Origin: an uncultured bacterium
GTDB lineage: Bacteria; Zixibacteria; MSB-5A5; GN15; FEB-12
NCBI GenBank assembly: GCA_965372795.1
Contig: CBDVDR010000010.1
Coordinates: 46,992 to 110,991, forward strand
Length of the DNA: 64,000 bases
Direction of reading: 5' to 3'
Every line of letters starts with the position of its first letter. Position 1 is the stretch's first letter. The notes under the pieces are model-generated. The model searched no databases, had not been told where the DNA came from, and worked only from the letters and a program-made list of their open reading frames with translations. Below are positions 1 to 13,691 of the stretch, in pieces. The position numbers were made by a program, and so were the translations under genes.

Positions 1-565
1 TTTTTCATATTCACCCAAATCTTTATATACCAAAGCTAAATTGGACTGACTTGATGCCATAGAAGGATGTTTGTCACCGAAGTTTTCAAAACTTGTTTGC
101 AGAGCTAATTCTAACAACTCTCTTGCTTTTTCATATTCACCCAAATCTCTATATACCAGCGCTAAATTGGACTGACGTATCGCAACAGTAGGATGCTTGT
201 CACCATAATTTTCGATATCAAGATGTAAGGCTTGTTCTAAAAGATCCCTTGCTTTTTCTAAATGACACAATTCTTGATATATTAAAGCCAAATTGAATTT
301 ATCTATTGCTACAGAAGGATGTTTTTCACCGGATATTTCTATTCCTGTACGTAAAGCTTGTTCTAATAACTCTCTTGCTTTTTCAAATTCACCCAAATCC
401 TTATATATCATCGCTAAATTGGACTGACTTGTTGCTACAGAAGAATGTTTTTCACCGTGTTTTTCAATATTTGTTTGCAAAGCTTGTTCTAACAACTCTC
501 TTGCTTTTTCAAATTGACCCAACTCTATATATACCATAGCTAAATTGGACTGTAGACTTGCTGTT
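1..565 (-). repeat. 126-bp tandem coding repeats (42-aa TPR units)
   Basis: gctaaattggactg recurs at 35, 161, 413 and 539, with a degenerate copy at 287, giving a 126-bp period. Confidence 0.9.
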
Positions 566-3500
566 ATATCAGTATGGTCACCCCTGAGTTGCTTTAAAAG
601 AGCCTCACCAAAAGGAATGAAACGAAATTTATCTATTGGATTATCATTTGATTGTTCATAACTAAGTAGTCCTGCAACACTTTTGGAAAGAAGCTTCAAA
701 TCATCTATTGTAATATCCAGCCTAAAAATAAGTGCCTCAACCAGCACCGGGTGCATTTTGTAACTGTCGGTTTTATTATCCTTTAATACAAAACCTTGAT
801 CGCAAACATTCTCAAGCATCCCCCCGAATTCATCACTCCAGTCAAGCTTATTCTTATCTAATAACCTTGATAAGAATTCAAAATCTATCCATTGATTAGG
901 CAGGGCACTGAACTGTTTTAACAGATAAACTTCCTGCTCGCTAAGCCCGCTAATATCAAAAATACTCGTTATATATGATTTGATGCGATCAATTTTAGCA
1001 ATTTTATTAACATTATGTTTTACTTTAATCCCCGCTTTGGCATCTTTCGTGAAGGCACTTCTAACTGTTTCATATTTCCAGTGATTTCTGTGTGCCGACT
1101 TTGCCAGTATTTCAATGGTAAGTGTGTGAAGCTCCACTCCCTTAACAATAGACCGTATTTCTTTAGTAGAAAAACTACTATGATATTTGTTAAATAATTC
1201 TATTGCTTCATCTTCAGGAAGAAAATCCAAATCTATTATTTTGAAATTCTCGATACGTTCCCGCGATGTTACCAGAAGGTGCCATTCTGGTGCTTTAGGC
1301 AGCATGTCAAAATGTTCTGCCAGACTTTCATGAGCGTTATCTATTATAAGGAGTTTAGGTTTTTTACTTTGTAAAGTACGCAATTTATTCAAGCAGCTAA
1401 TTAACGGTTCGCTCAGTTCTTCCTCTGCTATTTTTAAATTCTTTATAAGTGATGTATTTGCAATTATTGCTTCTTCCAAACTGTTCTCTATTGTCAGCAA
1501 TACTATATGGTCATATTCATCATAAAACTCTGTCAGGTAGACAGCCGCTAAAGTTGTTTTACCAATTCCACCCATCCCATTAATAAGAGCCGTATCGTGG
1601 TTTTGCATAAGTGATTCACGCAGATTTTGCAAATCTATTTCTCTGCCCACAATATCTTTTTTGGGAATGCGTACCAATGCCGTAAGTTCTTTGGGATAAG
1701 AATTATCTGACCCTGCAATAGCATCATCTAATTTATCAATAATTATCTTCGTATCTTTTTTAATTTCTGAAGTATCTACTTTTATTGCTTTTGAAAGATT
1801 GAACAGATCAAAAACATTATCTGAAATTGTAAATATTTCTTCTTGATAGTTTTCCCCAAAAGCGAGTTTTTTTAGTTCCTCATCTGCTTCGATATTTTTT
1901 TCAAAAATGTTAAAAAAATCGTGAATCTGCTCTTTTTCAGGTACTTTGATTTTGTCGTTATTTTTTAATTCAGACAAAATTATTTCATTTGTTTTATAAC
2001 CTGCTTTACAGAAAAAACGATGTTTTAAAAGTTCTACCAAAAATATCTTTGACTGATAGAACAAGAGCTTATCATCGAAATCGGCCACGGGATTTGCTCT
2101 GCTGTATTCTTCTATTGTATTGTCAATAATCTCTGTAAATATTGACTGAAGTTTATATCTATTCTCTTTTGTTATCCAGCCTATGCCTTTTTTTATACCA
2201 TATGAAACAAATGTATTTGCTCCATTTTCTGAAAGTGTCATATAATTAGAGGATCGCTTACTATGAACTTCAGTATAATTTTCTGGGAAAACTGATAATT
2301 TCTCTTTCTGATTAACATTTAAATACAATTCATTGTACATTATATTTTTTGATTGATCATTGGTTGCTTTTAGAATTGTTTTTTCAATACGAGACAAATC
2401 ATCAATCAAATCATATACTCTAACCATTTCATAAGATTTAGGACATTGTAATTCTTTATAATTTTCTCTAAATCTCATCAAATCATCATATTTATAAAAA
2501 GTTGGTGATTTAGATTTCAAACATACAACACATTTACAAGGTAAAAGTTTATTATATTTCAATCTGGAATAACTGTTATGTATTTCATCTAAAATAAATA
2601 TAACTTCTGTATATAATTCTTTCCTACCATGCCCAGACACTTTGATTGACAATTCTCCCTTGCCCTGTTCTTCTATGATCTCAGCCCTATTTCCTTCACT
2701 CTCTAAGACTACTCCTTCTCGCCATACTAATGCTTGATTCACTATGTAGTTATGCATACTGATTATAAATTGAGTTATGATCCCTTTTGGCATAAACTCA
2801 TAAGAATATTTCAACTGTAAATTATCTTGATAATTCCAATTATAATCTGGTTGTTCCCTACTTAATAACTGAGGTACAATATATTTTTTATCAGAAGAAG
2901 GAATTTCATAACACAACATAAAATTCTTCATCAATTGCAACAACTCAAGATATTTATTATGTAATTTAGGTTCACTCCAAATCTCTTTAAGTTCGGCAAA
3001 TGCAAAGTGTCCTTTGTTTGCTAATAAATACTTATGATCAAGAACTTTATACATAGTATTAATACACCATATAGGATTTAAAATAACAAACTCACTTAAT
3101 ATAGAGTCTTCTTGAAAATGGATAATAACACCAAGATCTTGTAAAAATTGACTGAAAAAAAGTTGATCTCTCTTTCCAGTTAAACCATTTTTATCACAGA
3201 TAGTTAAAAATTCATCTAAACTGATATAATTTCTATTATCACTATTCAATATCTCACGTACATTTTTCCAAGTTTTAGGTATAATAATTCCAATATGAGG
3301 AAGTTTTTGAATATTAGACTTGATTGCATTTATGATTTCTGATAAACCACGATTATTTTCTAAATTTGTTGAAAATGAGTTTTTGAAATTAGTAAACTCT
3401 TTATGAAGTACAGATTCGTTGATATCTACTTTTCTATCACTCTTTTCATTCTTGATGATTAAAATCGGACTATCCGCACTGAATAATTTAATAGTATTCA

Positions 3501-5202
3501 ACCAATAATTAAGATCATTATCCTCATTCCGGCTATCAATCACAAGAAGAAATAGTGATCGATTGGTTAGAAAAAGCTGGTGAGTTTCATGATAAATCGG
3601 TTGGCCACCAAAGTCCCAAATATTAACACGTAATATCTCACCATCATCACTTTTAATAATCCATTTTAAATTGTTGATTCCTTTAGTAGGACTTTGATCT
3701 TGTTGTAATATCCAATCAGTATTTTCAATTTTTTTAGCAAGCGATGTTTTACCTACCCCTGCTTCCCCTAAGATAAATAAATTTGCTTCGTTTATATAAT
3801 CAGATCCTGTTTCATTAAGTTGACGATAATACTCTTGAAGTGATTCTATTCCTTTAGATGCCACTTCATAAGGAGGATCTACAAGTAGATTATTCACGCA
3901 GTTAAATACACACAATGAATGAAGATTCACTATTTGTTCAGATATCTTTTCAATCGCATTGTGACTAATATCTAATTCTTTCATATTTGTTAATAAAAAC
4001 AATGAATCTGGTAAAGTTTTTATTTTATTATTTGAACAATTTAAAGAAATAAGAGATTCTAATTTTTGTATTAAGTCTGGTATTCTTGTAATCAAATTAT
4101 TACTAATATTTAATGATCTTAGGTTTTTTAGTTGAAATATTTCTTTAGTTAATTCTTCTATGTTTGCATTACTTATATCTAATTCTATTATATTATTATG
4201 ATTATCTGTTCTACATTTAACAAATCCCTTTCCTAACTTCTCCTCTAACACTTCAATTATTGATAAATCTTCTCCTGGCTTGCTCAAATTACATTCTTCA
4301 AATATGTATTTTGTAAGATTGACTAATTCCTTCCCAACCATTCTTTTAGGATCTTTTTGGGGTGGTATTTCTTCTCCAAAACCATATTCAGGTTTATATG
4401 GAATTGACTGACTAATAATATATGTTAAAGCATCATTTTGATTCTCAACAGGTAAATAATCAAATAATTTTTCAGAGGCGTTCTGTTGCCATTTGATCAA
4501 CAAATTTCCTTCTGCAGCTTGTTCAACTCTTGAAGGAAGAACAATAAGCTGAGGTGGATTTTTTTCTACTCGATAATTAGGTGAAATCTCATTTATATTA
4601 TGAGCAATATTTTTAATACCTTCTATATTTTGTTCATTTAGTGCAAACAACATTACGACTGCATCAGGTATTTGAATTGTACATATTCCACCTATATCAG
4701 TTGTGCCTGTTCGGCTGTCTATGAGACAAATATAATATTTCTTCTTTATTTCATTTTTTAAATACTCAATAAAATTGAAACCTTGCCAATTTTCGTATAG
4801 ATCCTGCCAATCAAAATCATTAACTTTTGAAGCATAATCGCTGTCAAATCTTCCACTTGGAAGTAAAGATATACTGCCCCCACCTTTAAATTTTTCTATA
4901 TTTGGGAGAACATACTTATCTAAGTTGATTAATTCATCTTCTTTAATAGGTTCATCACTTGTAAGTAATTTTTTATACTCATAAAATAAATCAATTAAAC
5001 CAAAATCAATATTATCATTTTTGATATCAAAAAAACGATGAATCCCAGGTGCTTCAAGATCCCAATCAATAACAAGTACATTTAAATTATAATCTTTAGC
5101 AAGTACCCAAGCTACACTTGCAAGAGACATACTTCGCCCTACTCCACCTTTATATGAATAAAATGTAAATATTTTTGAACTTTGCATTTTTAAACTAACC
5201 AT
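1..5202 (-). CDS. Giant multidomain NTPase: KGGVGR ParA/MinD-like ATPase + LRR + Roc-COR + NB-ARC/STAND + TPR (3' end outside window)
   Basis: Manual translation gives no stop from ATG 5202 (AGGA 9 nt upstream) to base 1. Motifs: FYSYKGGVGRS (KGGVGRS at 5131-5151), IDWDLEAPG, LIDSRTG; five ~23-aa LRRs (~4190-3870); GEAGVGKTS (3742-3768), WDFGGQ (3601-3618), YEFMPKGII; GMGGIGKTT (1552-1578), LLIIDNA, LLVTSR, YKMHPVL; repeats of SNLALVYKDLGEYEKARELLEQAL. Confidence 0.93.
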   Translation of the reverse strand, partial: MVSLKMQSSKIFTFYSYKGGVGRSMSLASVAWVLAKDYNLNVLVIDWDLEAPGIHRFFDIKNDNIDFGLIDLFYEYKKLLTSDEPIKEDELINLDKYVLPNIEKFKGGGSISLLPSGRFDSDYASKVNDFDWQDLYENWQGFNFIEYLKNEIKKKYYICLIDSRTGTTDIGGICTIQIPDAVVMLFALNEQNIEGIKNIAHNINEISPNYRVEKNPPQLIVLPSRVEQAAEGNLLIKWQQNASEKLFDYLPVENQNDALTYIISQSIPYKPEYGFGEEIPPQKDPKRMVGKELVNLTKYIFEECNLSKPGEDLSIIEVLEEKLGKGFVKCRTDNHNNIIELDISNANIEELTKEIFQLKNLRSLNISNNLITRIPDLIQKLESLISLNCSNNKIKTLPDSLFLLTNMKELDISHNAIEKISEQIVNLHSLCVFNCVNNLLVDPPYEVASKGIESLQEYYRQLNETGSDYINEANLFILGEAGVGKTSLAKKIENTDWILQQDQSPTKGINNLKWIIKSDDGEILRVNIWDFGGQPIYHETHQLFLTNRSLFLLVIDSRNEDNDLNYWLNTIKLFSADSPILIIKNEKSDRKVDINESVLHKEFTNFKNSFSTNLENNRGLSEIINAIKSNIQKLPHIGIIIPKTWKNVREILNSDNRNYISLDEFLTICDKNGLTGKRDQLFFSQFLQDLGVIIHFQEDSILSEFVILNPIWCINTMYKVLDHKYLLANKGHFAFAELKEIWSEPKLHNKYLELLQLMKNFMLCYEIPSSDKKYIVPQLLSREQPDYNWNYQDNLQLKYSYEFMPKGIITQFIISMHNYIVNQALVWREGVVLESEGNRAEIIEEQGKGELSIKVSGHGRKELYTEVIFILDEIHNSYSRLKYNKLLPCKCVVCLKSKSPTFYKYDDLMRFRENYKELQCPKSYEMVRVYDLIDDLSRIEKTILKATNDQSKNIMYNELYLNVNQKEKLSVFPENYTEVHSKRSSNYMTLSENGANTFVSYGIKKGIGWITKENRYKLQSIFTEIIDNTIEEYSRANPVADFDDKLLFYQSKIFLVELLKHRFFCKAGYKTNEIILSELKNNDKIKVPEKEQIHDFFNIFEKNIEADEELKKLAFGENYQEEIFTISDNVFDLFNLSKAIKVDTSEIKKDTKIIIDKLDDAIAGSDNSYPKELTALVRIPKKDIVGREIDLQNLRESLMQNHDTALINGMGGIGKTTLAAVYLTEFYDEYDHIVLLTIENSLEEAIIANTSLIKNLKIAEEELSEPLISCLNKLRTLQSKKPKLLIIDNAHESLAEHFDMLPKAPEWHLLVTSRERIENFKIIDLDFLPEDEAIELFNKYHSSFSTKEIRSIVKGVELHTLTIEILAKSAHRNHWKYETVRSAFTKDAKAGIKVKHNVNKIAKIDRIKSYITSIFDISGLSEQEVYLLKQFSALPNQWIDFEFLSRLLDKNKLDWSDEFGGMLENVCDQGFVLKDNKTDSYKMHPVLVEALIFRLDITIDDLKLLSKSVAGLLSYEQSNDNPIDKFRFIPFGEALLKQLRGDHTDITASLQSNLAMVYIELGQFEKARELLEQALQTNIEKHGEKHSSVATSQSNLAMIYKDLGEFEKARELLEQALRTGIEISGEKHPSVAIDKFNLALIYQELCHLEKARDLLEQALHLDIENYGDKHPTVAIRQSNLALVYRDLGEYEKARELLELALQTSFENFGDKHPSMASSQSNLALVYKDLGEYEK

Positions 5203-5213
5203 AATTTCATATC

Positions 5214-5879
5214 CTACCCAGGAGGACGAAGATTTTTGCTTTTAATCTCATTATGATTAAAGTATTTATCAGAAGTTTCCAACATTCTCACATTAGTAGG
5301 AGCATCTTTTCTATCCTTTAGATATTTATCTAATAGTGATAGCTCCATGAAGTTATGAAGATCATCCTCTCTTGTAACAATTCTACATTTCAACCCATTG
5401 AAATATTTTTTGGGAATTGATTCTAATTGTTGAGTATACAATTCATATAATGCTCCTTGAATGCCTGTAGGTTTTTTAGAACAGAATAAAAAACAAGAAC
5501 AATGAGATTCAGAATCACAACAAGTATCAATAGTAGGTATTAGCTTTGAATACTTTTCATGAAGTAGAGCAAAATTATCAATTATATATAAGGATGCTCT
5601 TTCTAAAAAAGAAACACGATTACGATCATCATCAAAATCAACATCTTCATTTGCGCATATAAATTTATTTTCTTTTGATTTTAATATTTCTATTATAGAT
5701 TTGTCAGAAAAAGGTTTCCAATCTTCTGATACATTTCCATAAAGAGTGTCCTTATTTCGATCAAGCCATATAGCTATTGACGATTTCCCCTTCCCCTTTA
5801 GTATTTCACACACTTCTGCAACTTCACTATGCCTAAGTGCAACAATAATGTAATTTAATGTCTTTTCAGTATTTTCCAT
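5214..5879 (-). CDS. Hypothetical protein resembling the FxsC C-terminal domain
   Basis: YGNVSEDWKPF and LYIIDNFAL recall the YYG..DW.P(Y/F) and hhhDxW/F motifs of the FxsC C-terminal domain. It lies immediately upstream of a KGGVGR ATPase, the usual FxsC partner. Motif recall only. Confidence 0.5.
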   Translation of the reverse strand: MENTEKTLNYIIVALRHSEVAEVCEILKGKGKSSIAIWLDRNKDTLYGNVSEDWKPFSDKSIIEILKSKENKFICANEDVDFDDDRNRVSFLERASLYIIDNFALLHEKYSKLIPTIDTCCDSESHCSCFLFCSKKPTGIQGALYELYTQQLESIPKKYFNGLKCRIVTREDDLHNFMELSLLDKYLKDRKDAPTNVRMLETSDKYFNHNEIKSKNLRPPG

Positions 5880-6711
5880 TACAAAGTCTATTTATAGATT
5901 CTAATTTTCCGATTACATCTTCTTGAGATCTCCTAAATTGATTATCTTCACTTAATTTTTTTATAGGGTAAAAATAGAAGCGCCATTTAATTTCAATATC
6001 ATCGACACTATCATAATTGAGAATCTTTTTAAAAATTTCAATCAAACCATTTAAATCTTCAAGTAATTTTGCAATATCATAATATAGTATTTTACTGTAA
6101 TTATTTAAATCTTCATTTTGTATATTTTCTATCGTCTTTAATGCTACTGAGTAAATCCCTGATAATTCATCTTTGTTAAATACATTATTAATGTTTGATT
6201 TTTTTATCTTTATAAGAAGGTGATTAACTTGCCTTGTAATTTGTAAAAAACTTGATGCGGGAAATGCAGGCAAACTATCTCTATATTTAATCAAAAAACT
6301 CAGAAATAAAGTAGATGGAATTAACAGTATAATTAAAATCTTAAATAATAATTCTGCCACTACTTCTAATAAACCTTGAAAAGATGTTAAACCAAAGATG
6401 TAGATATCTTCTTGAATACCTATATATCCACACATCAATAAATTTATAGTTAAAATAATAAACAACATTAACAAAGGTCTCATTATTTGACCTCTGAATG
6501 CAAAATAGCAATCCCTTTGAAAATGATTTATCAAAATATAGACAGTAAATAAAAAAATTATTGTAAAAGGAAGACTTAATGCAGGATTTAGATTGAATAT
6601 CTCAATTTTTGAAATACCATAATAACTCATCATCACTGTTACAAGGCTAATTAAATATAGTCCCCACAACCGAAATCCTAAGTAGTAATCTAACGTAAGA
6701 AGTTTACCCAA
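5866..6711 (-). CDS. Membrane protein (about 4 N-terminal TM helices plus helical soluble C-terminus)
   Basis: Four hydrophobic segments in the first ~140 aa, TTG start, 14-bp overlap with the downstream gene. Confidence 0.75.
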   Translation of the reverse strand: MGKLLTLDYYLGFRLWGLYLISLVTVMMSYYGISKIEIFNLNPALSLPFTIIFLFTVYILINHFQRDCYFAFRGQIMRPLLMLFIILTINLLMCGYIGIQEDIYIFGLTSFQGLLEVVAELLFKILIILLIPSTLFLSFLIKYRDSLPAFPASSFLQITRQVNHLLIKIKKSNINNVFNKDELSGIYSVALKTIENIQNEDLNNYSKILYYDIAKLLEDLNGLIEIFKKILNYDSVDDIEIKWRFYFYPIKKLSEDNQFRRSQEDVIGKLESINRLCNGKY

Positions 6712-6924: not shown

Positions 6925-9327
6925 TCATATCACTGCCCTACTCTCATATAAAGATGCTTGGAAGCCTATGAATGTATCCCGAATTGAACTAATATCACCC
7001 AATTCTCGTTTCGCATCAGGAATCGCTTTGTATTTTAGAATCAATAGATCAGGAAGTTTCTTTACATCAAGCTCACTTACGCCAGATTCCACATACTGCT
7101 TTAAAACAAAATCCAAAAATATTCGCTGTTTGGATTCATAACCATCATAATGTGACTTTGCAAATTCCGCTCTTTGACTTCGTTTTACAGGATTGGTACT
7201 AAATGCCACAAAAGACAACACATCATACAAATCACTATCTTCCGCATGAATCATTTGTTGTAAATCTTGTAATTGGTTTGGAGTAAAGCCATGCTCATTC
7301 AATTCTTGTAAGAGTTGTTTTCGAGTATCTGGGTTGCTCCAAATAGCACGTAATTCATCTTCATCCTTGAAAAAATCAGGCAAGGCATCAAACATTGACT
7401 TTAAAAATTCTTCTGCTGAGATAGGTTTCCCATCAGGACTCCAAAAAGATGTCTGCACCATAAAATCTAATTCACGTACTTTATTATCTGATAATTTAAC
7501 TTTTATCATCTTTCGAGGTGGCTGTTTATCACATTCACAAGGTGCTTTTCCGCAAAACTCACATCGTTCAGGTGGGTCAGTATCGCACACACAAGGTCTC
7601 TCACCACATGTTTGGCATACTTTTGGAGGTTCGTCTACACAAATACATACAACCTTTCCGCATTTTTCACAGGGTAAAGCATCGCCATCCCATTCAGGAT
7701 CAAAAAAATGATAATGCGCTCCGACAAAATCATATATTGTAAAATAATCCTTACCCTCAAATAAGCGGGTTCCACGACCAATAATCTGCTTGAACTCGAT
7801 CATCGAATTTACTTTACGCATGAGAATAATATTTTTAAGCTCAGGAGCATCTACACCGGTACTTAATTTCTGTGACGTTGTTAGAATCGTAGGGATGATT
7901 TTCTCGTTATCCTGAAAATCCCGTAAATGCTGTTCACCCCGCTTGGCATCATCAGCTGTAACTCTATGGCAATAGTTAGGATTGGTGCTGACAGACTGTT
8001 GGTTGATCAAATTTCGAACCCCAAGAGCATGTAGCTGGGTGTCACAAAACACAATCGTCTTTTGGTTTTGATTCATCATTTCCAAAAACAGTTTTACCCT
8101 ATACTTTTCCCGTTCCATTATTTCAATCACACGATTCATTTCATTCTCGGTGTAAATCTTTTCCTTATCAATCTTACCCTCTAATATTATATCATCAGAA
8201 GTATAGATATAATCATCAACTGTCGTACGTATCTGCTTCACTCTAAATGGTGTCAGAAAACCGTCATTGATTCCTTCTTTGAGAGAATAAATATAGACAG
8301 GTTCACCGAAATACTTATAAGTATCAATATTCTTATCCCGCTTTGGAGTTGCCGTAAGACCTAACTGCACTGCGGGACTAAAATATTCCATAATCGCTCG
8401 CCAGGTGCTTTCATCATTGGCACCACCACGATGACACTCATCTATAACGATAAAATCAAAATAATCTTTTGGGTATTCTCCAAAGTATGGTTCGCCATTA
8501 TCACCGCTCATAAAGGTTTGGAAGATTGTAAAGAAAATAGAACCGTTGGTAGGCACTTTCCCTTTTTTACGAATATCGTCTGGGCGGATTCGCACCAAAG
8601 CATCTTCTTCAAAGGAAGAGAAAGCATTAAAAGCCTGGTCTGCTAAAATATTTCTATCTGCTAAAAACAATATACGAGGAAGCCGCTTACCATCTCTTCG
8701 TAAATTCCATCTACTATGGAATAATTTCCAGGCAATCTGAAAAGCAATTGCGGTTTTTCCTGTTCCGGTAGCAAGAGTAAGCAGTATACGATTTTCACCT
8801 TTAGCAATAGCTTCCAATGCTTTTGTAATGGCATTTTCCTGATAGTAGCGAGGTTGCCAGGTGCCACCCCGATCTTCAAAGGGAACCGTATGTAATTTAT
8901 CCCGCCATTCTCCTGCTTCTTTATTGATGCTATCTTCTTCGGCAAAGGTCATCGCCCACAATTCATCTGGTGATGGAAATTTATCTACATCCGCTTCTTT
9001 ACCTTCCAGCATATCGATACCATAAATCTTCAACCCGTTACTGCTGTAAGTATAGCGTACCTGTAACCTGCCAGCATAATCTTTGGCTTGCCCAACCCCT
9101 TCGGTATAAGGTTTTTCATCAGACTTAGCTTCAATAACTGCAAGATTACGGTTTTTATATTGTAAGACATAGTCGGCAAAGTCAGGTTTACTTCGTTTCC
9201 CGTTTCCGATTAAACGACCCTTTGAGATAGGGAACTCCATGCGGATACGAGATCCATCCACAACACCCCATCCTGCTTGTTTTAAGGCTGGGTCAATATA
9301 GGTTGCTTTAGTTTCCGCTTCGTTCAT
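6925..9327 (-). CDS. hsdR: Type I restriction enzyme R subunit (EcoAI/EcoEI-like)
   Basis: ADY..IEAK nuclease motif, ATGTGKT, IDECHR, GLTATP, QIIGRGTR, and an EcoEI-type C-terminal domain. Confidence 0.95.
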   Translation of the reverse strand: MNEAETKATYIDPALKQAGWGVVDGSRIRMEFPISKGRLIGNGKRSKPDFADYVLQYKNRNLAVIEAKSDEKPYTEGVGQAKDYAGRLQVRYTYSSNGLKIYGIDMLEGKEADVDKFPSPDELWAMTFAEEDSINKEAGEWRDKLHTVPFEDRGGTWQPRYYQENAITKALEAIAKGENRILLTLATGTGKTAIAFQIAWKLFHSRWNLRRDGKRLPRILFLADRNILADQAFNAFSSFEEDALVRIRPDDIRKKGKVPTNGSIFFTIFQTFMSGDNGEPYFGEYPKDYFDFIVIDECHRGGANDESTWRAIMEYFSPAVQLGLTATPKRDKNIDTYKYFGEPVYIYSLKEGINDGFLTPFRVKQIRTTVDDYIYTSDDIILEGKIDKEKIYTENEMNRVIEIMEREKYRVKLFLEMMNQNQKTIVFCDTQLHALGVRNLINQQSVSTNPNYCHRVTADDAKRGEQHLRDFQDNEKIIPTILTTSQKLSTGVDAPELKNIILMRKVNSMIEFKQIIGRGTRLFEGKDYFTIYDFVGAHYHFFDPEWDGDALPCEKCGKVVCICVDEPPKVCQTCGERPCVCDTDPPERCEFCGKAPCECDKQPPRKMIKVKLSDNKVRELDFMVQTSFWSPDGKPISAEEFLKSMFDALPDFFKDEDELRAIWSNPDTRKQLLQELNEHGFTPNQLQDLQQMIHAEDSDLYDVLSFVAFSTNPVKRSQRAEFAKSHYDGYESKQRIFLDFVLKQYVESGVSELDVKKLPDLLILKYKAIPDAKRELGDISSIRDTFIGFQASLYESRAVI

Positions 9328-9328
9328 G

Positions 9329-10222
9329 TTAAAATAAATCCATTAGTTCTTTTGCGGATATTAATTTCTCATAAGTAGTATATTTTATGCTTTGCATCAA
9401 TCCTTTTGGTGCTTTGCTATATTCTAATGGTCCAATTGGTTTTGCTGGAGCCACAAAATTCAATCGATATTTCCCCCCATCACCATAAGGCTCAATCGAT
9501 TCGACTTCAGCAAAATGAGTAACTGCAGATATTGGTGCGGTCTGATATACCGCTATATACTTAATTTCACCAAGTCTACCACCACCAATTCTAATTGCGT
9601 ACCAACAGTGTTCCCTAAGAAATACTTCTTTGAATCCATCTTCTTGAGCGGGTACTACAATTGTATCCTGAATACTTTTTTCTTCAATCGGCAGATTAGG
9701 TACCACATCTATTTTCGTGGCTTTTTCAAATACTCTTATTTCAACCAATGGTAATATACTCAAAATTTCATTTAGAAATTCTTGTGTATCAGCCTTTTCA
9801 GACTCAGTAAGAATTGGTTCATTTGGTGTAGTTGAGTTGTTTAATTTACATCGACTTGCATTTTTTGCTTGTTGAATAAGTGCCCATTCAAGCCAAGTAA
9901 TGTGCGCTCGGTTTAGACCACCATTGCTTGAAACGAATACCAGAACTTTGTTCCAAAATTTCTTATTCTTACTGTGATCTTCTATTCGTTTCTTAATTCC
10001 ATCACCTTGCCCCACATAAATAGTTGGGAAGTCATCCTCTTCCTCATAGCCAGCTAAGATATAGATACCCGCTTCATCAAGCTCTTTTCTATTCTTATAT
10101 TTATCCCATGCTGCACGAGATATTTCCAGACCGATACCTGTCCAGTTCATCTTGGTAATCATCTTGAAATCTTGCGGGTCTCCATCGGGTACAAATAAAC
10201 GAATAGTATAAGGTTTAGCCAT
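9329..10222 (-). CDS. GIY-YIG nuclease family protein (type often found in Type I R-M operons)
   Basis: GIYIL...IYVGQG...RIEDH...KFW. The likely start is ATG 10222 (MAKPYTIRLF, AAAGGA RBS) rather than 10303. Confidence 0.85.
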   Translation of the reverse strand: MAKPYTIRLFVPDGDPQDFKMITKMNWTGIGLEISRAAWDKYKNRKELDEAGIYILAGYEEEDDFPTIYVGQGDGIKKRIEDHSKNKKFWNKVLVFVSSNGGLNRAHITWLEWALIQQAKNASRCKLNNSTTPNEPILTESEKADTQEFLNEILSILPLVEIRVFEKATKIDVVPNLPIEEKSIQDTIVVPAQEDGFKEVFLREHCWYAIRIGGGRLGEIKYIAVYQTAPISAVTHFAEVESIEPYGDGGKYRLNFVAPAKPIGPLEYSKAPKGLMQSIKYTTYEKLISAKELMDLF

Positions 10223-10277
10223 GCGTCTTAATCCTTTCTTGTTTCCTAAGAGCCAATTGCTCTGGTTCCCGCATCGT

Positions 10278-10802
10278 TCATTTCGGCAATTTCCGATCGC
10301 CATTCACACAGAGTATGGGGTTATGAGTTGTCAGTCTGAAATCTTTCCAGCGTATCTTTTTTGGTATTGGTAGTTCTATATTTAGATATTTCTCGTATGT
10401 GTTTCTCGCACGAAGAAAAATCCATTCCGATTCAGCCAATTCGATTCCCATTGTTCTAACTTTGTCTCTTAACTTGGGAATGTGGGTTATCAAATACTGT
10501 TCGTTTGCCTGGTTATTTCTAATCCGTTTTGGTTCATCCAATATATCTATTAGGAAAATACCCTGCTGTTTTAGTTCAACCAAGAACTTGTCATACTCCT
10601 CTATTGATTCCGGTCGCTTGTCAAAATAGTGATTAAATATAGTAGAAGGTAAGCTCGTGTCATCTTCAATTTTCTTACCAATAGCAAGCTTTTGTGGAAC
10701 ATAAAAGAATGTTCTCCCACTTGATGGCGGAGCTTCACCGATCAACAGAGTTTTAATCACTTCTGGTCTGTATTTATTCCTCTCTCGTTCGTAATCAATC
10801 AT
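10278..10802 (-). CDS. Putative uracil-DNA glycosylase superfamily-like protein
   Basis: KYRPEVIKTLLIGEAPP..FFY resembles the UDG-superfamily motif A region, and GIFLIDI follows. Confidence 0.5.
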   Translation of the reverse strand: MIDYERERNKYRPEVIKTLLIGEAPPSSGRTFFYVPQKLAIGKKIEDDTSLPSTIFNHYFDKRPESIEEYDKFLVELKQQGIFLIDILDEPKRIRNNQANEQYLITHIPKLRDKVRTMGIELAESEWIFLRARNTYEKYLNIELPIPKKIRWKDFRLTTHNPILCVNGDRKLPK

Positions 10803-10829
10803 ACAATTATGATTTCCCCTCAGATAGTC

Positions 10830-11990
10830 TCATGCTACTGCTCCTTCTGCTGTGGTCAGTTCGCCGTTGAATGCTTTTTGCAGGATAGATTTTTTCAAAT
10901 CGTCTAATGAATCTAATTCTTTTTCGTATTGAGATTCAAGGACTTCGGTTTGTTTTTTTAAAATTTCAAGTTTTTCAATAATTTTTAATTGTGCATTCAC
11001 TTTAGGAAATGAGATAAAATAATTTTCAATAAACTCTTTTGATACACGTTTATGACCAACAGCACCGGTCATTACCATTTTTCCTTCTACTCTAAACTGA
11101 TCTCTCGAAAGAAAGTAAAAAAGAAAATCAGACTTAATATCACCTAATGATCGAAAGACGATATATTCACTTGAACCAAATCCAATCCCATTTACTAAGT
11201 TACGTGCCACACCAAGTTTTCCATTTTCAAAACAAGGCGTTATTTTTGCCATTAAAACATCATCATCTGCAAAATACGTATAACTTCCTGCAACTTCATT
11301 TAATTTTTTTTGCTGAGCAATAGGGATGTCTTTTTGTAATACCTTTAAATCAGTCATTGGTAGAAATGTCACCATATCTGATTGATTTAGTTTATCTTTT
11401 GCTTCTTTTTTCGGTGGTTTAATGAGAAACACTTCCCCTAACTTCTTTTCCACCCAACCGTCACCTTTTTGGGTGAAGATTTGGTTCAGTTCGCTTTGGA
11501 AGAGGTCTTTAGTGTTTTGCAGGTTGCGTTCTACATTGGCTTTGGCTTTGTCGATTGCTTCAAAGCATCTGTCCAATATGGCAACAATGCGTTTCTGTTC
11601 AGGAAGAAGTGGGATTAAAGTTTCAATTGCATAAACATCATTCCTGTTAATTCCCGGTTTTACACCTTTGGCAAGAGCTGGAAGTTCAAGTAAAGACAGC
11701 AGGTGATACAAGAAATTAAGATTCAGTTCAGTTTTGTCAAACTTGACAAAGTAGGTAACATCAAGCGGCCAGAACTTTTCTTCTGTATAGTTGATTTCAC
11801 CTGCTGATCCTTTTCTTCCAACAATAATGCTTGGTTCATCTGAATAATACTCGTTGGTTCTATCCTTAACACCATTCGCACCATAGACTGGATACAATCC
11901 TTCCGATGTTCGTTTATCTTTTGAAAGAGGCTTCCCATACTCTAACGAGAGGATATCTCCAATCTTTTTGCTTTCCCAACTCTGTTTCAT
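10830..11990 (-). CDS. hsdS: Type I R-M specificity subunit
   Basis: Two TRDs separated by the conserved PLLPEQKRIVAILD spacer; C-terminal LKKSILQKAFNGEL. Confidence 0.95.
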   Translation of the reverse strand: MKQSWESKKIGDILSLEYGKPLSKDKRTSEGLYPVYGANGVKDRTNEYYSDEPSIIVGRKGSAGEINYTEEKFWPLDVTYFVKFDKTELNLNFLYHLLSLLELPALAKGVKPGINRNDVYAIETLIPLLPEQKRIVAILDRCFEAIDKAKANVERNLQNTKDLFQSELNQIFTQKGDGWVEKKLGEVFLIKPPKKEAKDKLNQSDMVTFLPMTDLKVLQKDIPIAQQKKLNEVAGSYTYFADDDVLMAKITPCFENGKLGVARNLVNGIGFGSSEYIVFRSLGDIKSDFLFYFLSRDQFRVEGKMVMTGAVGHKRVSKEFIENYFISFPKVNAQLKIIEKLEILKKQTEVLESQYEKELDSLDDLKKSILQKAFNGELTTAEGAVA

Positions 11991-13444
11991 AGCAACTCTT
12001 TAATACTTTCTAAAATCTCTTTGGTCTCGTTGTCCAGCGTTGCCATCTCAGTCAATATTTCCTTTGGACTTCGTAATGGTGCCTCTTCTGGTGTATTTGG
12101 GTTTTTCACACTTAGATCATAGGTTTCAGTGTTGATATTGGCAATATTCACGCTCCAACATCTTTCATTCTCCGGTTTACTCTTTTGCAGTTTTACAAAC
12201 TCTGCCATATCATTATCATTGAGCGGATTGGTCTTGCCCATATTGCGACCCGGATCAAGCTGGTAGTACCAAATCTTCTTGGTCGGTTCACCTTTGTTAA
12301 AAAACAGTACTACCGTTTTCACACCTGCCCCTAAAAACGTCCCACCTGGCATATCTAAAATTGTATGCAGGTTACAGTTTTCCAGTAGATGTTTCCTCAG
12401 AGAGATAGAGGCATTGTCGGTATTGCTCAAGAATGTATTTTTGATAACTATCCCGGCACGACCGCCGGCTTTGAGGGTTTTGATAAAGTGCTGCAAAAAC
12501 AGAAAAGCGGTCTCACTGGTTTTAATATTAAAATTCTGCTGAACTTCTTTGTGCTCTTTAGCACCAAAGGGTGGGTTTGCCATTATCACTTTGTATCTAT
12601 CTTTTTCCTGAATATCCCGAATGTTCTCACTTAGAGTATTTGTGTGGCTAATATTGGGGGCCTCTATGCCATGAAGAATCATATTCATAATACCGATGAT
12701 ATACGCCAGATTTTTCTTTTCCTTACCGTAGAAGGTTTTTTCCTGAAGAGTTTTTAAATCGGTAGTGGATAATGAATCTCTGTCCTTTGTCATATGAGCG
12801 AAGGCTTCACACAGGAAGCCTGCTGAACCCACCGCACCATCATAGATGGTTTCCCCTATCTGTGGGTTTACAACCTCAATGATAGCCCTAATAAGTGGTC
12901 TGGGAGTGTAATACTGCCCGCCGTTACGCCCGGCATTACCCATATTCTTAATTTTACTCTCATAGAGATGCGAAAGCTCGTGCTTGTCTTTAGTCGTTCG
13001 AAATTGTATTTCATCGATATGATCTATGATTTCACGGAGATTATAACCGCTTTGTATTTTGTTTTTGAGTTCAGAGAATATTTCACCAATTTTATATTCG
13101 ATAGTTTTTGAATTGTCAGCCTTTTCTTTGAATTTTGAGAGATATGGGAAAAGTTTGCCGTTGACAAACTGAACCAAATCGGGACCACTCATAGCTTTGT
13201 GATGATCGAGTTTACCATCGGATGTTTTTGGCATCGCCCAGTTTGCCCAGCGGTATTCTTCATCTAATATGAAAGTGTATTTTTTACCCTTAAGTTCGGC
13301 TGAATCTTTCTTATCGAGTTCCAGATCATCCAGATACCGCAAAAACAAAATCCATGAGGTTTGCCCGATATAGTCTAACTCACTATCGGCACCAGCGTCT
13401 TTATAAAGGACATCATCAATATTTTTAAAAGTCTGTTCAAACAT
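11987..13444 (-). CDS. hsdM: Type I R-M N6-adenine methyltransferase
   Basis: GQYYTPR, DGAVGSAGFL, NPPF. The likely start is ATG 13444 (AGGAG RBS). It overlaps hsdS by 4 bp. Confidence 0.95.
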   Translation of the reverse strand: MFEQTFKNIDDVLYKDAGADSELDYIGQTSWILFLRYLDDLELDKKDSAELKGKKYTFILDEEYRWANWAMPKTSDGKLDHHKAMSGPDLVQFVNGKLFPYLSKFKEKADNSKTIEYKIGEIFSELKNKIQSGYNLREIIDHIDEIQFRTTKDKHELSHLYESKIKNMGNAGRNGGQYYTPRPLIRAIIEVVNPQIGETIYDGAVGSAGFLCEAFAHMTKDRDSLSTTDLKTLQEKTFYGKEKKNLAYIIGIMNMILHGIEAPNISHTNTLSENIRDIQEKDRYKVIMANPPFGAKEHKEVQQNFNIKTSETAFLFLQHFIKTLKAGGRAGIVIKNTFLSNTDNASISLRKHLLENCNLHTILDMPGGTFLGAGVKTVVLFFNKGEPTKKIWYYQLDPGRNMGKTNPLNDNDMAEFVKLQKSKPENERCWSVNIANINTETYDLSVKNPNTPEEAPLRSPKEILTEMATLDNETKEILESIKELL

Positions 13445-13691
13445 TCGATGCAACTCCTAATAGCTTATGATATGATTACTGTCTGAATTATTTCACCCAC
13501 AGCGTTCAATTGTTTACATTTAATTAGATTTCGAGCCTTTCAAAGACCTTTCCCCTAAGTTGTTGTTACGTTTCAAATAATATGATAAATATATCATTGT
13601 ATGTCAAATGAATAAGAATACGATTGATTTTGAAGATTTACATGCCTATTTTTAAAATATTAAGTAAATAGATAAATTAACGGAGGATTTA

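Follow-up and report, generated by a model that had tools for sequence, protein, structure and literature searches.

The Roco (LRRK2-like) GTPases and the NLR/STAND ATPases make up the two large families of repeat sensors gated by nucleotides, and the leucine-rich repeat (LRR)-Roc-COR protein of Chlorobium tepidum serves as a model for LRRK2. A further family, the KGGVGR module, is very large, and its fusion partners include many recognised immune domains, both effector and sensor. In Kaur et al. 2020 (PMC7159879), MinD/ParA-like domains are described as recurrent 'effector' domains of nucleoside triphosphate-dependent conflict systems and predicted to be inactive, AP-GTPase (Roc) domains are strictly linked to COR, and two levels of regulation are stressed for such systems. 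A Runella Roc-COR-CHAT protease is also named in a preprint on a bacterial gasdermin operon (bioRxiv 10.1101/2021.06.07.447441). The present analysis concerns a giant minus-strand gene, P0002, at the left edge of a 64,000-nucleotide (nt) stretch of DNA from an uncultured bacterium of the Zixibacteria (contig CBDVDR010000010.1, positions 46,992 to 110,991; G000:C10:46992-110991), referred to below as the window. P0002 combines a KGGVGR module, a Roco segment and an NLR. It is very probable that the gene is intact, that it belongs to a conserved cassette and that its NLR was fused behind the Roco part.

The frame of P0002 is free of stops over the 1734 codons that lie in the window and runs past the left edge. 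Extension of the contig by 10 kb to the left closed the open reading frame (ORF) at 1812 residues (L005:9764-15202), with the last 78 codons and the stop occupying 237 nt outside the window (L005:9764-10000). The stop-free minus-strand frame of at least 1734 codons reported in the initial annotation is thus part of a complete ORF. That annotation also described the gene as unannotated, which is so only for its beginning: a public call of the same protein exists (P0007, 1788 residues), but it is truncated, starting at Met25 and cutting off the KGGVGR P-loop (window 5131-5202). Alignment with homologs favours the longer start, ahead of Met25. Because the motif is missing from the public call, its precomputed Pfam list holds no ParA-type family, and database domain lists for P0002 therefore miss the ParA-like module.

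The domain order proposed earlier, i.e., KGGVGR module-LRR-Roc-COR-A/B-NB-ARC-TPR (tetratricopeptide repeat), was recovered by profile matches above the curated cut-offs. The KGGVGR-motif AAA profile of NCBIfam (NF047398) matched residues 10-203 with 155.4 bits (cut-off 90), and in Pfam the Roc profile PF08477 matched residues 475-586 with 86.2 bits (cut-off 27), COR-A (PF16095) scored 136.9 bits (cut-off 35.3), COR-B (PF25497) 120.5 bits (cut-off 27), and NB-ARC (PF00931) matched residues 1190-1349 with 46.6 bits (cut-off 23.5); TPR_12 scored 180 bits, and the TPR region recovered spans residues ~1540-1805. Roc, COR-A and COR-B follow one another without interruption over residues 475-935, as in Roco proteins, and the NB-ARC carries Walker A (GMGGIGKTT, 1209-1217), Walker B (LLIIDN, 1284-1289) and MHD-like (MHP, 1483-1485) motifs ahead of a repeat sensor, as in STAND/NLR-like proteins. 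In the Roc domain, GEAGVGKTS (479-487), TKGI, DFGGQ (within WDFGGQ, 529-534) and NEKSD align with those of seven Roco homologs, and G1, switch I, G3 and G4 are intact. GTP binding and hydrolysis and COR-mediated dimerisation are predicted for P0002, as is ligand-induced, ATP-dependent oligomerisation of its NB-ARC. The TPR array (L005:9813-10616; window 1-616 and beyond) has a period of 126 nt (42 residues), with five in-register copies that are 67-76% identical.

Three intact Walker A motifs had been claimed for the protein, which is correct for Roc and NB-ARC, whereas the first (KGGVGRS, residues 18-24; P-loop at window 5131-5151) has Arg23 in place of the catalytic Lys. K18, Arg23, D46-W-D48 and D162-S-R-T-G are invariant in both module alignments. 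The signature Lys (K18), the switch-I DxD (D46/D48) and the Walker B Asp (D162) are therefore all present in this module, and Arg23 stands where canonical ParA/MinD P-loops have a Lys before Ser/Thr. The closest solved relative is the distant ParA-like structure 3k9g (E 5.8e-4). By analogy with Walker A Lys-to-Arg mutants, the replacement in an otherwise conserved pocket suggests a dimer switch that is competent to bind nucleotide and slow to hydrolyse it.

A collection of 5.8 billion clusters was queried with the whole protein, with residues 1-985 and with the module alignment. About 8000 top word-sharing candidates were scored for each query, a preselection by which distant analogues could be missed. 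The whole protein gave 176 hits and residues 1-985 gave 77 hits at E <= 1e-20; the module alignment, scored against longer proteins, matched 6550 of 8000 at E <= 1e-40, and architectures were taken from the best 120 of these 6550. Among the matches listed, no other protein carries a KGGVGR module, Roc-COR and NB-ARC together, and query coverage stays within 45% for every hit apart from P0002. The triple combination was thus found only in the protein's own database entry, as had been anticipated, and the pairwise combinations, already listed as known in the initial annotation, are common. STAND and Roco segments occur in the opposite order in P0076 (ATPase_2-LRR-Roc-COR-EAD7) and P0041. No description of a bacterial Roco-NLR fusion was found in the literature, judged in part from titles and abstracts, although the architecture tables of Kaur et al. 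2020, not fully checked, could list related ones; the supplementary text of that paper, in the part available, contains none of AP-GTPase, COR, MinD or ParA, and its Figure 1-source data 1 tables may lie outside that text. The terms Roc, COR, MinD, ParA, NB-ARC and GTPase, taken as whole words, are all absent from a preprint of 2026 on STAND receptors of bacteria. The gasdermin preprint was the only paper found to mention Roc-COR in an anti-phage setting, and nothing related was found on the KGGVGR motif as such. The architecture of P0002 thus appears so far unique, assembled from known modules of a domain-shuffling family.

The origin of the C-terminal half could be traced through a paralog in the same genome. 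Residues 988-1806 of P0002 are 68% identical to the entire P0003, a stand-alone NLR of 864 residues on contig C4. At the nucleotide level the two are 81% identical, and the homology begins at window 2231, 64 nt after the P0003 start codon. The GC content of the C-terminal half (34.0%) is close to that of P0003 (33.7%), and that of the N-terminal half is 28.4%. The first part of this NLR, residues 988-1189, is a helical domain (the N-domain). When 1.84 billion cluster representatives were searched exhaustively for it with phmmer, 211 proteins were obtained at E <= 0.001. These carriers belong to the STAND type, and their tails are TPR, WD40 or PIN-associated. Among the matches listed, the N-domain starts no more than 33 residues from the N-terminus in 149 of 149 other carriers. 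Only in P0002, one of 150 listed carriers, is it internal, with 987 residues ahead of it (963 in the public call).

A maximum-likelihood tree of the NB-ARC/ARC region placed P0002 as sister to P0003 (support 100/99), within a clade that comprises seven N-domain NLRs (94/95). Of 15 KGGVGR-linked NB-ARC rows, 12 had fewer than 180 aligned residues and were left out, and the three retained lie outside this clade. Three of the 107 other genomes of the family hold stand-alone relatives, including an outgroup copy in G100 (an 875-residue ORF with 60% identity), and in the family-genome comparison the two NLR copies of the present genome are 78% identical to each other. Paralog identity, GC content, N-domain position and tree together make the direction of the event clear: a stand-alone NLR gene appears to have been duplicated in this lineage and one copy fused, head to tail, behind the Roco gene.

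The initial annotation had instead placed a Roco cassette inside an FxsT-like protein, i.e., a KGGVGR-NB-ARC-TPR protein into which the Roco segment was inserted. The linear domain order would be identical, KGGVGR-NB-ARC-TPR proteins are very common (NB-ARC was found by phmmer in 47 of 84 module ORFs at 79 fetched loci), and FxSxx_TPR is the top NCBIfam hit. However, that equivalog (NF040586) scored 227.6 bits, below its cut-off of 300, and the match covers the TPR region only. The C-terminal 825 residues constitute a complete NLR of the stand-alone type with its own N-domain, a domain never seen behind a KGGVGR module among the matches listed. The NLR half is also far closer to P0003 than to P0353, a close module relative with NB-ARC (26% identity), and the tree, with 3 of 15 KGGVGR-linked rows kept, groups it with stand-alone NLRs. 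Insertion into an FxsT-type protein is therefore very improbable. No FxSxx-COOH peptide or maturation genes were recognised among the neighbours in Pfam and NCBIfam scans, in which short peptides were not searched for.

The N-domain itself (approximately 150-190 residues; P0199-P0347) heads at least 211 STAND-type cluster representatives, with TPR, WD40 and PIN-TPR-GreABC tails. Conserved positions include F61, P101, F109, F113 and an 'ENYKEEIF' consensus. Its model is all helical (predicted local distance difference test, pLDDT, 84.3); Foldseek against the PDB gave a best E of 0.68, which is not proof of a new fold, and the wide VIA-align search aligned a single long helix with generic coiled coils only (Z <= 6.1). 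It may represent a new family of N-terminal NLR domains. In P0003, the TPR array is more uniform than that of P0002 (78-83% identity) and has one unit more.

Several observations count against an intact, working fusion. The triple fusion was found once only, in a draft genome of 69 contigs, and is known from assembled sequence. A 252-nt tract at window 1366-1617 (residues 1196-1279) is identical to the paralog (L006:10210-10461), a place where a short-read assembler could switch between paralogs, and thus a possible assembly ambiguity. The fused NB-ARC copy has a longer branch since the split than the stand-alone copy (0.11 versus 0.03), and relaxed constraint on the fused lineage alone would be compatible with the pairwise substitution rates given below.

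It could accordingly be argued that a KGGVGR-Roco gene and an NLR gene were wrongly joined by chimeric assembly or consensus error, the more so as the GC content steps from 28.4% to 34.0% at the junction and Met988 aligns near the paralog start. However, the junction (window 2231-2397) lies in unique sequence. The repeat is 620 nt downstream of it in gene direction, and therefore a paralog switch at the repeat would leave the architecture unchanged. The 52-codon linker (residues 936-987) contains no stop in the coding frame, whereas the other two frames hold 9 and approximately 20 stops per 111 codons. The gene lies inside a 110,991-bp contig, away from the ends, and an independent public gene caller reads through the junction (P0007). 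P0002 is evidently a real gene, not a frame open by chance, and the chance of an artefact is slim. The two genes otherwise differ at a synonymous rate (dS) of about 0.43, and the 252-nt tract probably arose by gene conversion between the NLR of P0002 and its stand-alone paralog. A second tract identical to the paralog, of 70 nt, begins at window 782.

A real gene could still be a recent neutral accident, in which one sensor half works and the other is drifting. The singleton status in searches of 5.8 billion clusters, the longer branch and the divergence from the paralog of the first approximately 12 N-domain residues at the junction are compatible with this. However, the catalytic motifs of Roc and NB-ARC are all intact, and no stop or frameshift occurs across 5.4 kb of DNA with a GC content of 28-34%. 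The pairwise ratio of nonsynonymous to synonymous substitution rates (dN/dS) between P0002 and P0003 was 0.33 overall (dS 0.43), with 0.22 in NB-ARC, 0.18 in ARC, 0.41 in the N-domain and 0.41 in the TPR array. These values, low in every region, argue against a decaying pseudogene, and a redundant fusion is quite improbable. Fusion of a duplicated NLR behind an intact KGGVGR-Roco gene thus remains the preferred account of the structure.

The N-terminal half has a composite history of its own. The nearest matches of the Roco part (47-50% identity) are P0012, P0015 and P0127, stand-alone Roco proteins that lack the module, and it is only 29-42% identical to the four KGGVGR-Roco proteins found, namely P0128 (EAD7 tail), P0025 and P0138 (TIR tails) and P0357 (TPR before the LRR, short tail). 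The module is nearest (51-53%), among the matches listed, to KGGVGR-TPR and KGGVGR-TIR-NB-ARC-TPR proteins, and therefore the N-terminal half is itself a mosaic. A query with residues 1-985 found only partial matches, in 6 of 107 other genomes of the family, and none in the same-genus genome; the gene is patchy and accessory. The possibility that residues 988-1189 are an adaptor tail shared with stand-alone Roco proteins was considered and rejected: the P0045 alignment extends to residue 1057, and the tail alone gave E values of 0.10 and 1.8, consistent with alignment drift. The genome encodes a second, stand-alone Roco (G000:C1:281991-283820, a 949-residue ORF with 36% identity) and a second KGGVGR module (G000:C7:40249-41088, 32% identity) with two stops inside (one TGA, one TAA).

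P0002 is the last of three tightly packed genes on one strand (window 6711-1), preceded by P0005, a membrane protein gene, and P0004. The three-gene operon proposed initially gains support from other genomes, in which the arrangement recurs. Five loci with a P0004-type gene were found, comprising the window, G239, L020, L099 and L100. A KGGVGR-module gene directly follows the P0004-type gene in all five, and a P0005-type gene precedes it in all four that have upstream sequence, L100 being cut off upstream. When P0004 was searched against 284 genomes of the phylum, G239 was the only further genome with a match. It encodes, in this order, a membrane protein of 283 residues with 26% identity to P0005 (E 2e-7), a protein of 225 residues with 22% identity to P0004 (E 1e-9) and a protein of 809 residues. 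Over its first approximately 335 residues the last shares 44% identity with the KGGVGR module (E 2e-88), and its tail is unrelated and contains an Lcl_C domain. Among the 79 fetched module loci, only L020 has P0005- and P0004-type genes upstream, and its module is the closest there (51% identity); none of the 84 module ORFs at these loci has a Roco segment. L099 and L100 were found by a metagenome scan with the P0004 alignment. The tails at L020, L099 and L100 are plain TPR repeats, and the L100 protein is complete at 634 residues.

The modules of these four other loci are 44-51% identical to that of P0002. The constant unit of the cassette is therefore two small proteins and a module of approximately 335 residues, and the tail varies (TPR, Lcl_C, or Roco and NLR). 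What is new here is this conserved, uncharacterised three-gene cassette with variable tails. A scan of the operon for promoters and terminators gave results at or below shuffle expectation. The P0004 model (pLDDT 56.3) had weak Foldseek matches to generic α/β NTPase-like folds (template modelling score <= 0.38), which were set aside. A predicted complex of the KGGVGR module with P0004 scored 0.05 against a mark of 0.32, without controls, and counts neither way on binding.

The KGGVGR module is widespread beyond the cassette, with at least 594 loci confirmed in species-level genomes by a scan with the module alignment. Elsewhere it heads proteins with STAND, TIR, TPR, WD40, PNP, patatin, CHAT and FGE-type tails, and its close type heads TIR-NB-ARC-TPR, HEAT-PNP, Roco-TIR and Roco-EAD7 proteins. 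Two KGGVGR-module genes stand in tandem on the same strand at L062:3083-10846, L044:6989-14759, L085:4713-7960, L065 and L093, mostly in actinomycete genomes; at L062 and L085 they directly abut. In PADLOC, the module of P0002 (residues 7-242) matched the PDC-M28B model PDLC04559 (E 4.4e-27), a limited likeness that spans only model positions 126-355 of 438, and no other PDC-M28 component was present among the eight proteins scanned. The NB-ARC part gave a weak mad8 match only (3.2e-5), and no match to known antiphage STAND proteins (Avs, bNACHT). No mention of PDC-M28 or FxSxx-COOH was found in the literature searched.

A scheme for how such a protein might work can be drawn from these comparisons. 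The minimal cassettes consist of the module, a repeat sensor, P0004 and P0005, and therefore the module, P0004 and P0005 are taken as the putative output and the variable tail as the sensor. In P0002 the tail would comprise two nucleotide-gated sensors in series, LRR-Roc-COR and then N-domain-NB-ARC-TPR. Ligand recognition by the LRR, the TPR or both would license an assembly that depends on nucleotide, with GTP for the dimer cycle of Roc-COR and ATP for the oligomerisation of NB-ARC, and assembly would bring the N-terminal KGGVGR modules together. Instead of turning ATP over, the module would bind it and dimerise into a long-lived sandwich, because the dimer-bridging signature Lys and the acidic pocket are kept and an Arg occupies the catalytic Lys position. 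The module dimer would then engage P0004 and the membrane protein P0005; P0005 would be the likeliest effector, because the minimal cassettes hold no other candidate. An immune or cell-death function may thus be proposed for P0002. The whole scheme, in which P0002 would serve a defence or cell-suicide system as its sensor and switch, is offered tentatively.

The genomic setting was described initially as a defence island, a label that is plausible and thinly supported: one type I restriction-modification (R-M) system adjoins the cassette, and the remaining neighbours have no recognisable family in Pfam, NCBIfam and PADLOC scans. The cassette and the N-terminal half of P0002 form a low-GC stretch (25-30%, versus 38-41% further right). 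Two large minus-strand ORFs downstream of P0002, L005:3996-7118 (1040 residues) and L005:7739-9088 (449 residues), have no Pfam, NCBIfam or PADLOC match. The features of the locus are collected in the table.

Table. Features of P0002, its cassette and the adjacent operon; positions are those of the window.
Feature	Position	Strand	Remarks
P0002, giant gene	1..5202	minus	1734 of 1812 codons within the window
KGGVGR module, residues 1-335, ParA/MinD-like fold	4198..5202	minus	NF047398
Leucine-rich repeats, residues 336-440	3883..4197	minus	LRR_8 (residues 340-394), LRR_4, LRR_14
Roc GTPase domain, residues 475-596	3415..3780	minus	PF08477; motifs G1 GEAGVGKTS, switch-I Thr, G3 DFGGQ, G4 NEKSD
COR-A, residues 642-780, and COR-B, residues 793-935	2398..3279	minus	PF16095, PF25497
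Linker/fusion junction, 52 residues, 936-987	2242..2397	minus	open in coding frame only
Helical N-domain, residues 988-1189, no Pfam family	1636..2241	minus	N-terminal in STAND/NLR-type proteins elsewhere
NB-ARC/ARC region, residues 1190-1535	598..1635	minus	PF00931
TPR array, residues 1536-1812, extends past window	1..597	minus	TPR_12; units of 42 residues (126 nt)
P0004, 221 residues, no known family	5214..5879	minus	stop 11 nt before start of giant gene
P0005, 281 residues, 3-4 predicted transmembrane helices and soluble tail	5866..6711	minus	overlaps P0004 by 14 nt
Type I R-M operon, adjacent, context only	6925..13453	minus	Pfam, NCBIfam, PADLOC
hsdR, EcoAI-family	6925-9327	minus	R-M operon
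Two ORFs, 324 and 174 residues, no Pfam/NCBIfam family	9329-10303 and 10278-10802	minus	between hsdR and hsdS
hsdS	10830-11990	minus	R-M operon
hsdM	11987-13453	minus	R-M operon

A real gene with a role outside immunity was also considered, namely as a multi-input regulatory or developmental scaffold or as a ParA-like positioning factor. Relatives of ParA and MinD normally act in positioning, no effector domain was found in P0002, and its NB-ARC and TPR parts weakly resemble regulators of the AfsR and NsdA types in NCBIfam; control of transcription or metabolism is a known role of some STAND-TPR proteins. Kaur et al. 2020 also connect such systems with multicellularity, beyond their connection with phage. 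However, a Pfam search found no DNA-binding domain in P0002, the gene has the patchy distribution of accessory genes, it lies in a low-GC island beside an R-M system, and the module is fused elsewhere to effector-type domains (TIR, patatin, CHAT and PNP). A non-immune role is therefore unlikely.

A number of points nevertheless weigh against the proposed function in defence or cell suicide. Neither P0004 (Atlas scores <= 0.85) nor P0005 belongs to a family in Pfam, NCBIfam or PADLOC, and the N-domain has no Pfam family or fold assignment. Profile searches recognised no effector domain in P0002, PADLOC recognises no complete system at the locus, and the R-M operon is the only defence-related neighbour system. 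In addition, ParA-like domains of this kind are predicted in the literature to be inactive (PMC7159879), and to cast the module as output is a guess. When the structural and evolutionary account and the functional scheme are taken jointly, the combination is moderately probable.

A stronger claim would be that the fusion is a 'Rosetta stone', i.e., that it places Roco GTPase and NLR ATPase sensors in series in one immune pathway, the output being a hitherto unrecognised device in which P0004 and P0005 work with a ParA-like module that dimerises on ATP and is deficient in hydrolysis. This is rather unlikely. If true, P0002 would be a natural receptor with three switches and two sensors, bacterial LRRK2-like proteins would gain a defined immune role, and the cassettes would form a new family with swappable sensors. 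A natural covalent fusion of Roco and NLR argues that both can serve one pathway. P0002 also brings the switches together in one construct, where they can be mutated one at a time, and the conserved cassette and the family-less N-terminal NLR domain are more general leads.

The locus can be set against three kinds of described protein. Like other NF047398 fusions, P0002 has an N-terminal module with K-G-G-V-G-R, D-W-D and D-S-R-T-G motifs at the head of a multidomain protein; unlike them, it combines Roco and NLR in a tail of 1480 residues with two further NTPase switches, and it belongs to a sub-clade that travels with P0004- and P0005-type genes (1 of 79 genome loci examined). With NB-ARC-TPR NLR-like proteins it shares the Walker A, Walker B and MHx motifs and a nephrocystin-3-like TPR_12 array, and with P0003, P0008, P0009 and P0068 the N-terminal helical domain; it differs from these and from FxsT in that this domain is internal and in scoring below the FxsT cut-off. 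With bacterial Roco proteins it shares the LRR-Roc-COR-A-COR-B core with family-typical G motifs and, as in many of them, the C-terminal 'output' position is occupied. However, P0002 carries a whole NLR there, instead of TIR, EAD7 or CHAT, and an N-terminal KGGVGR module that only four other Roco proteins have among the matches listed.

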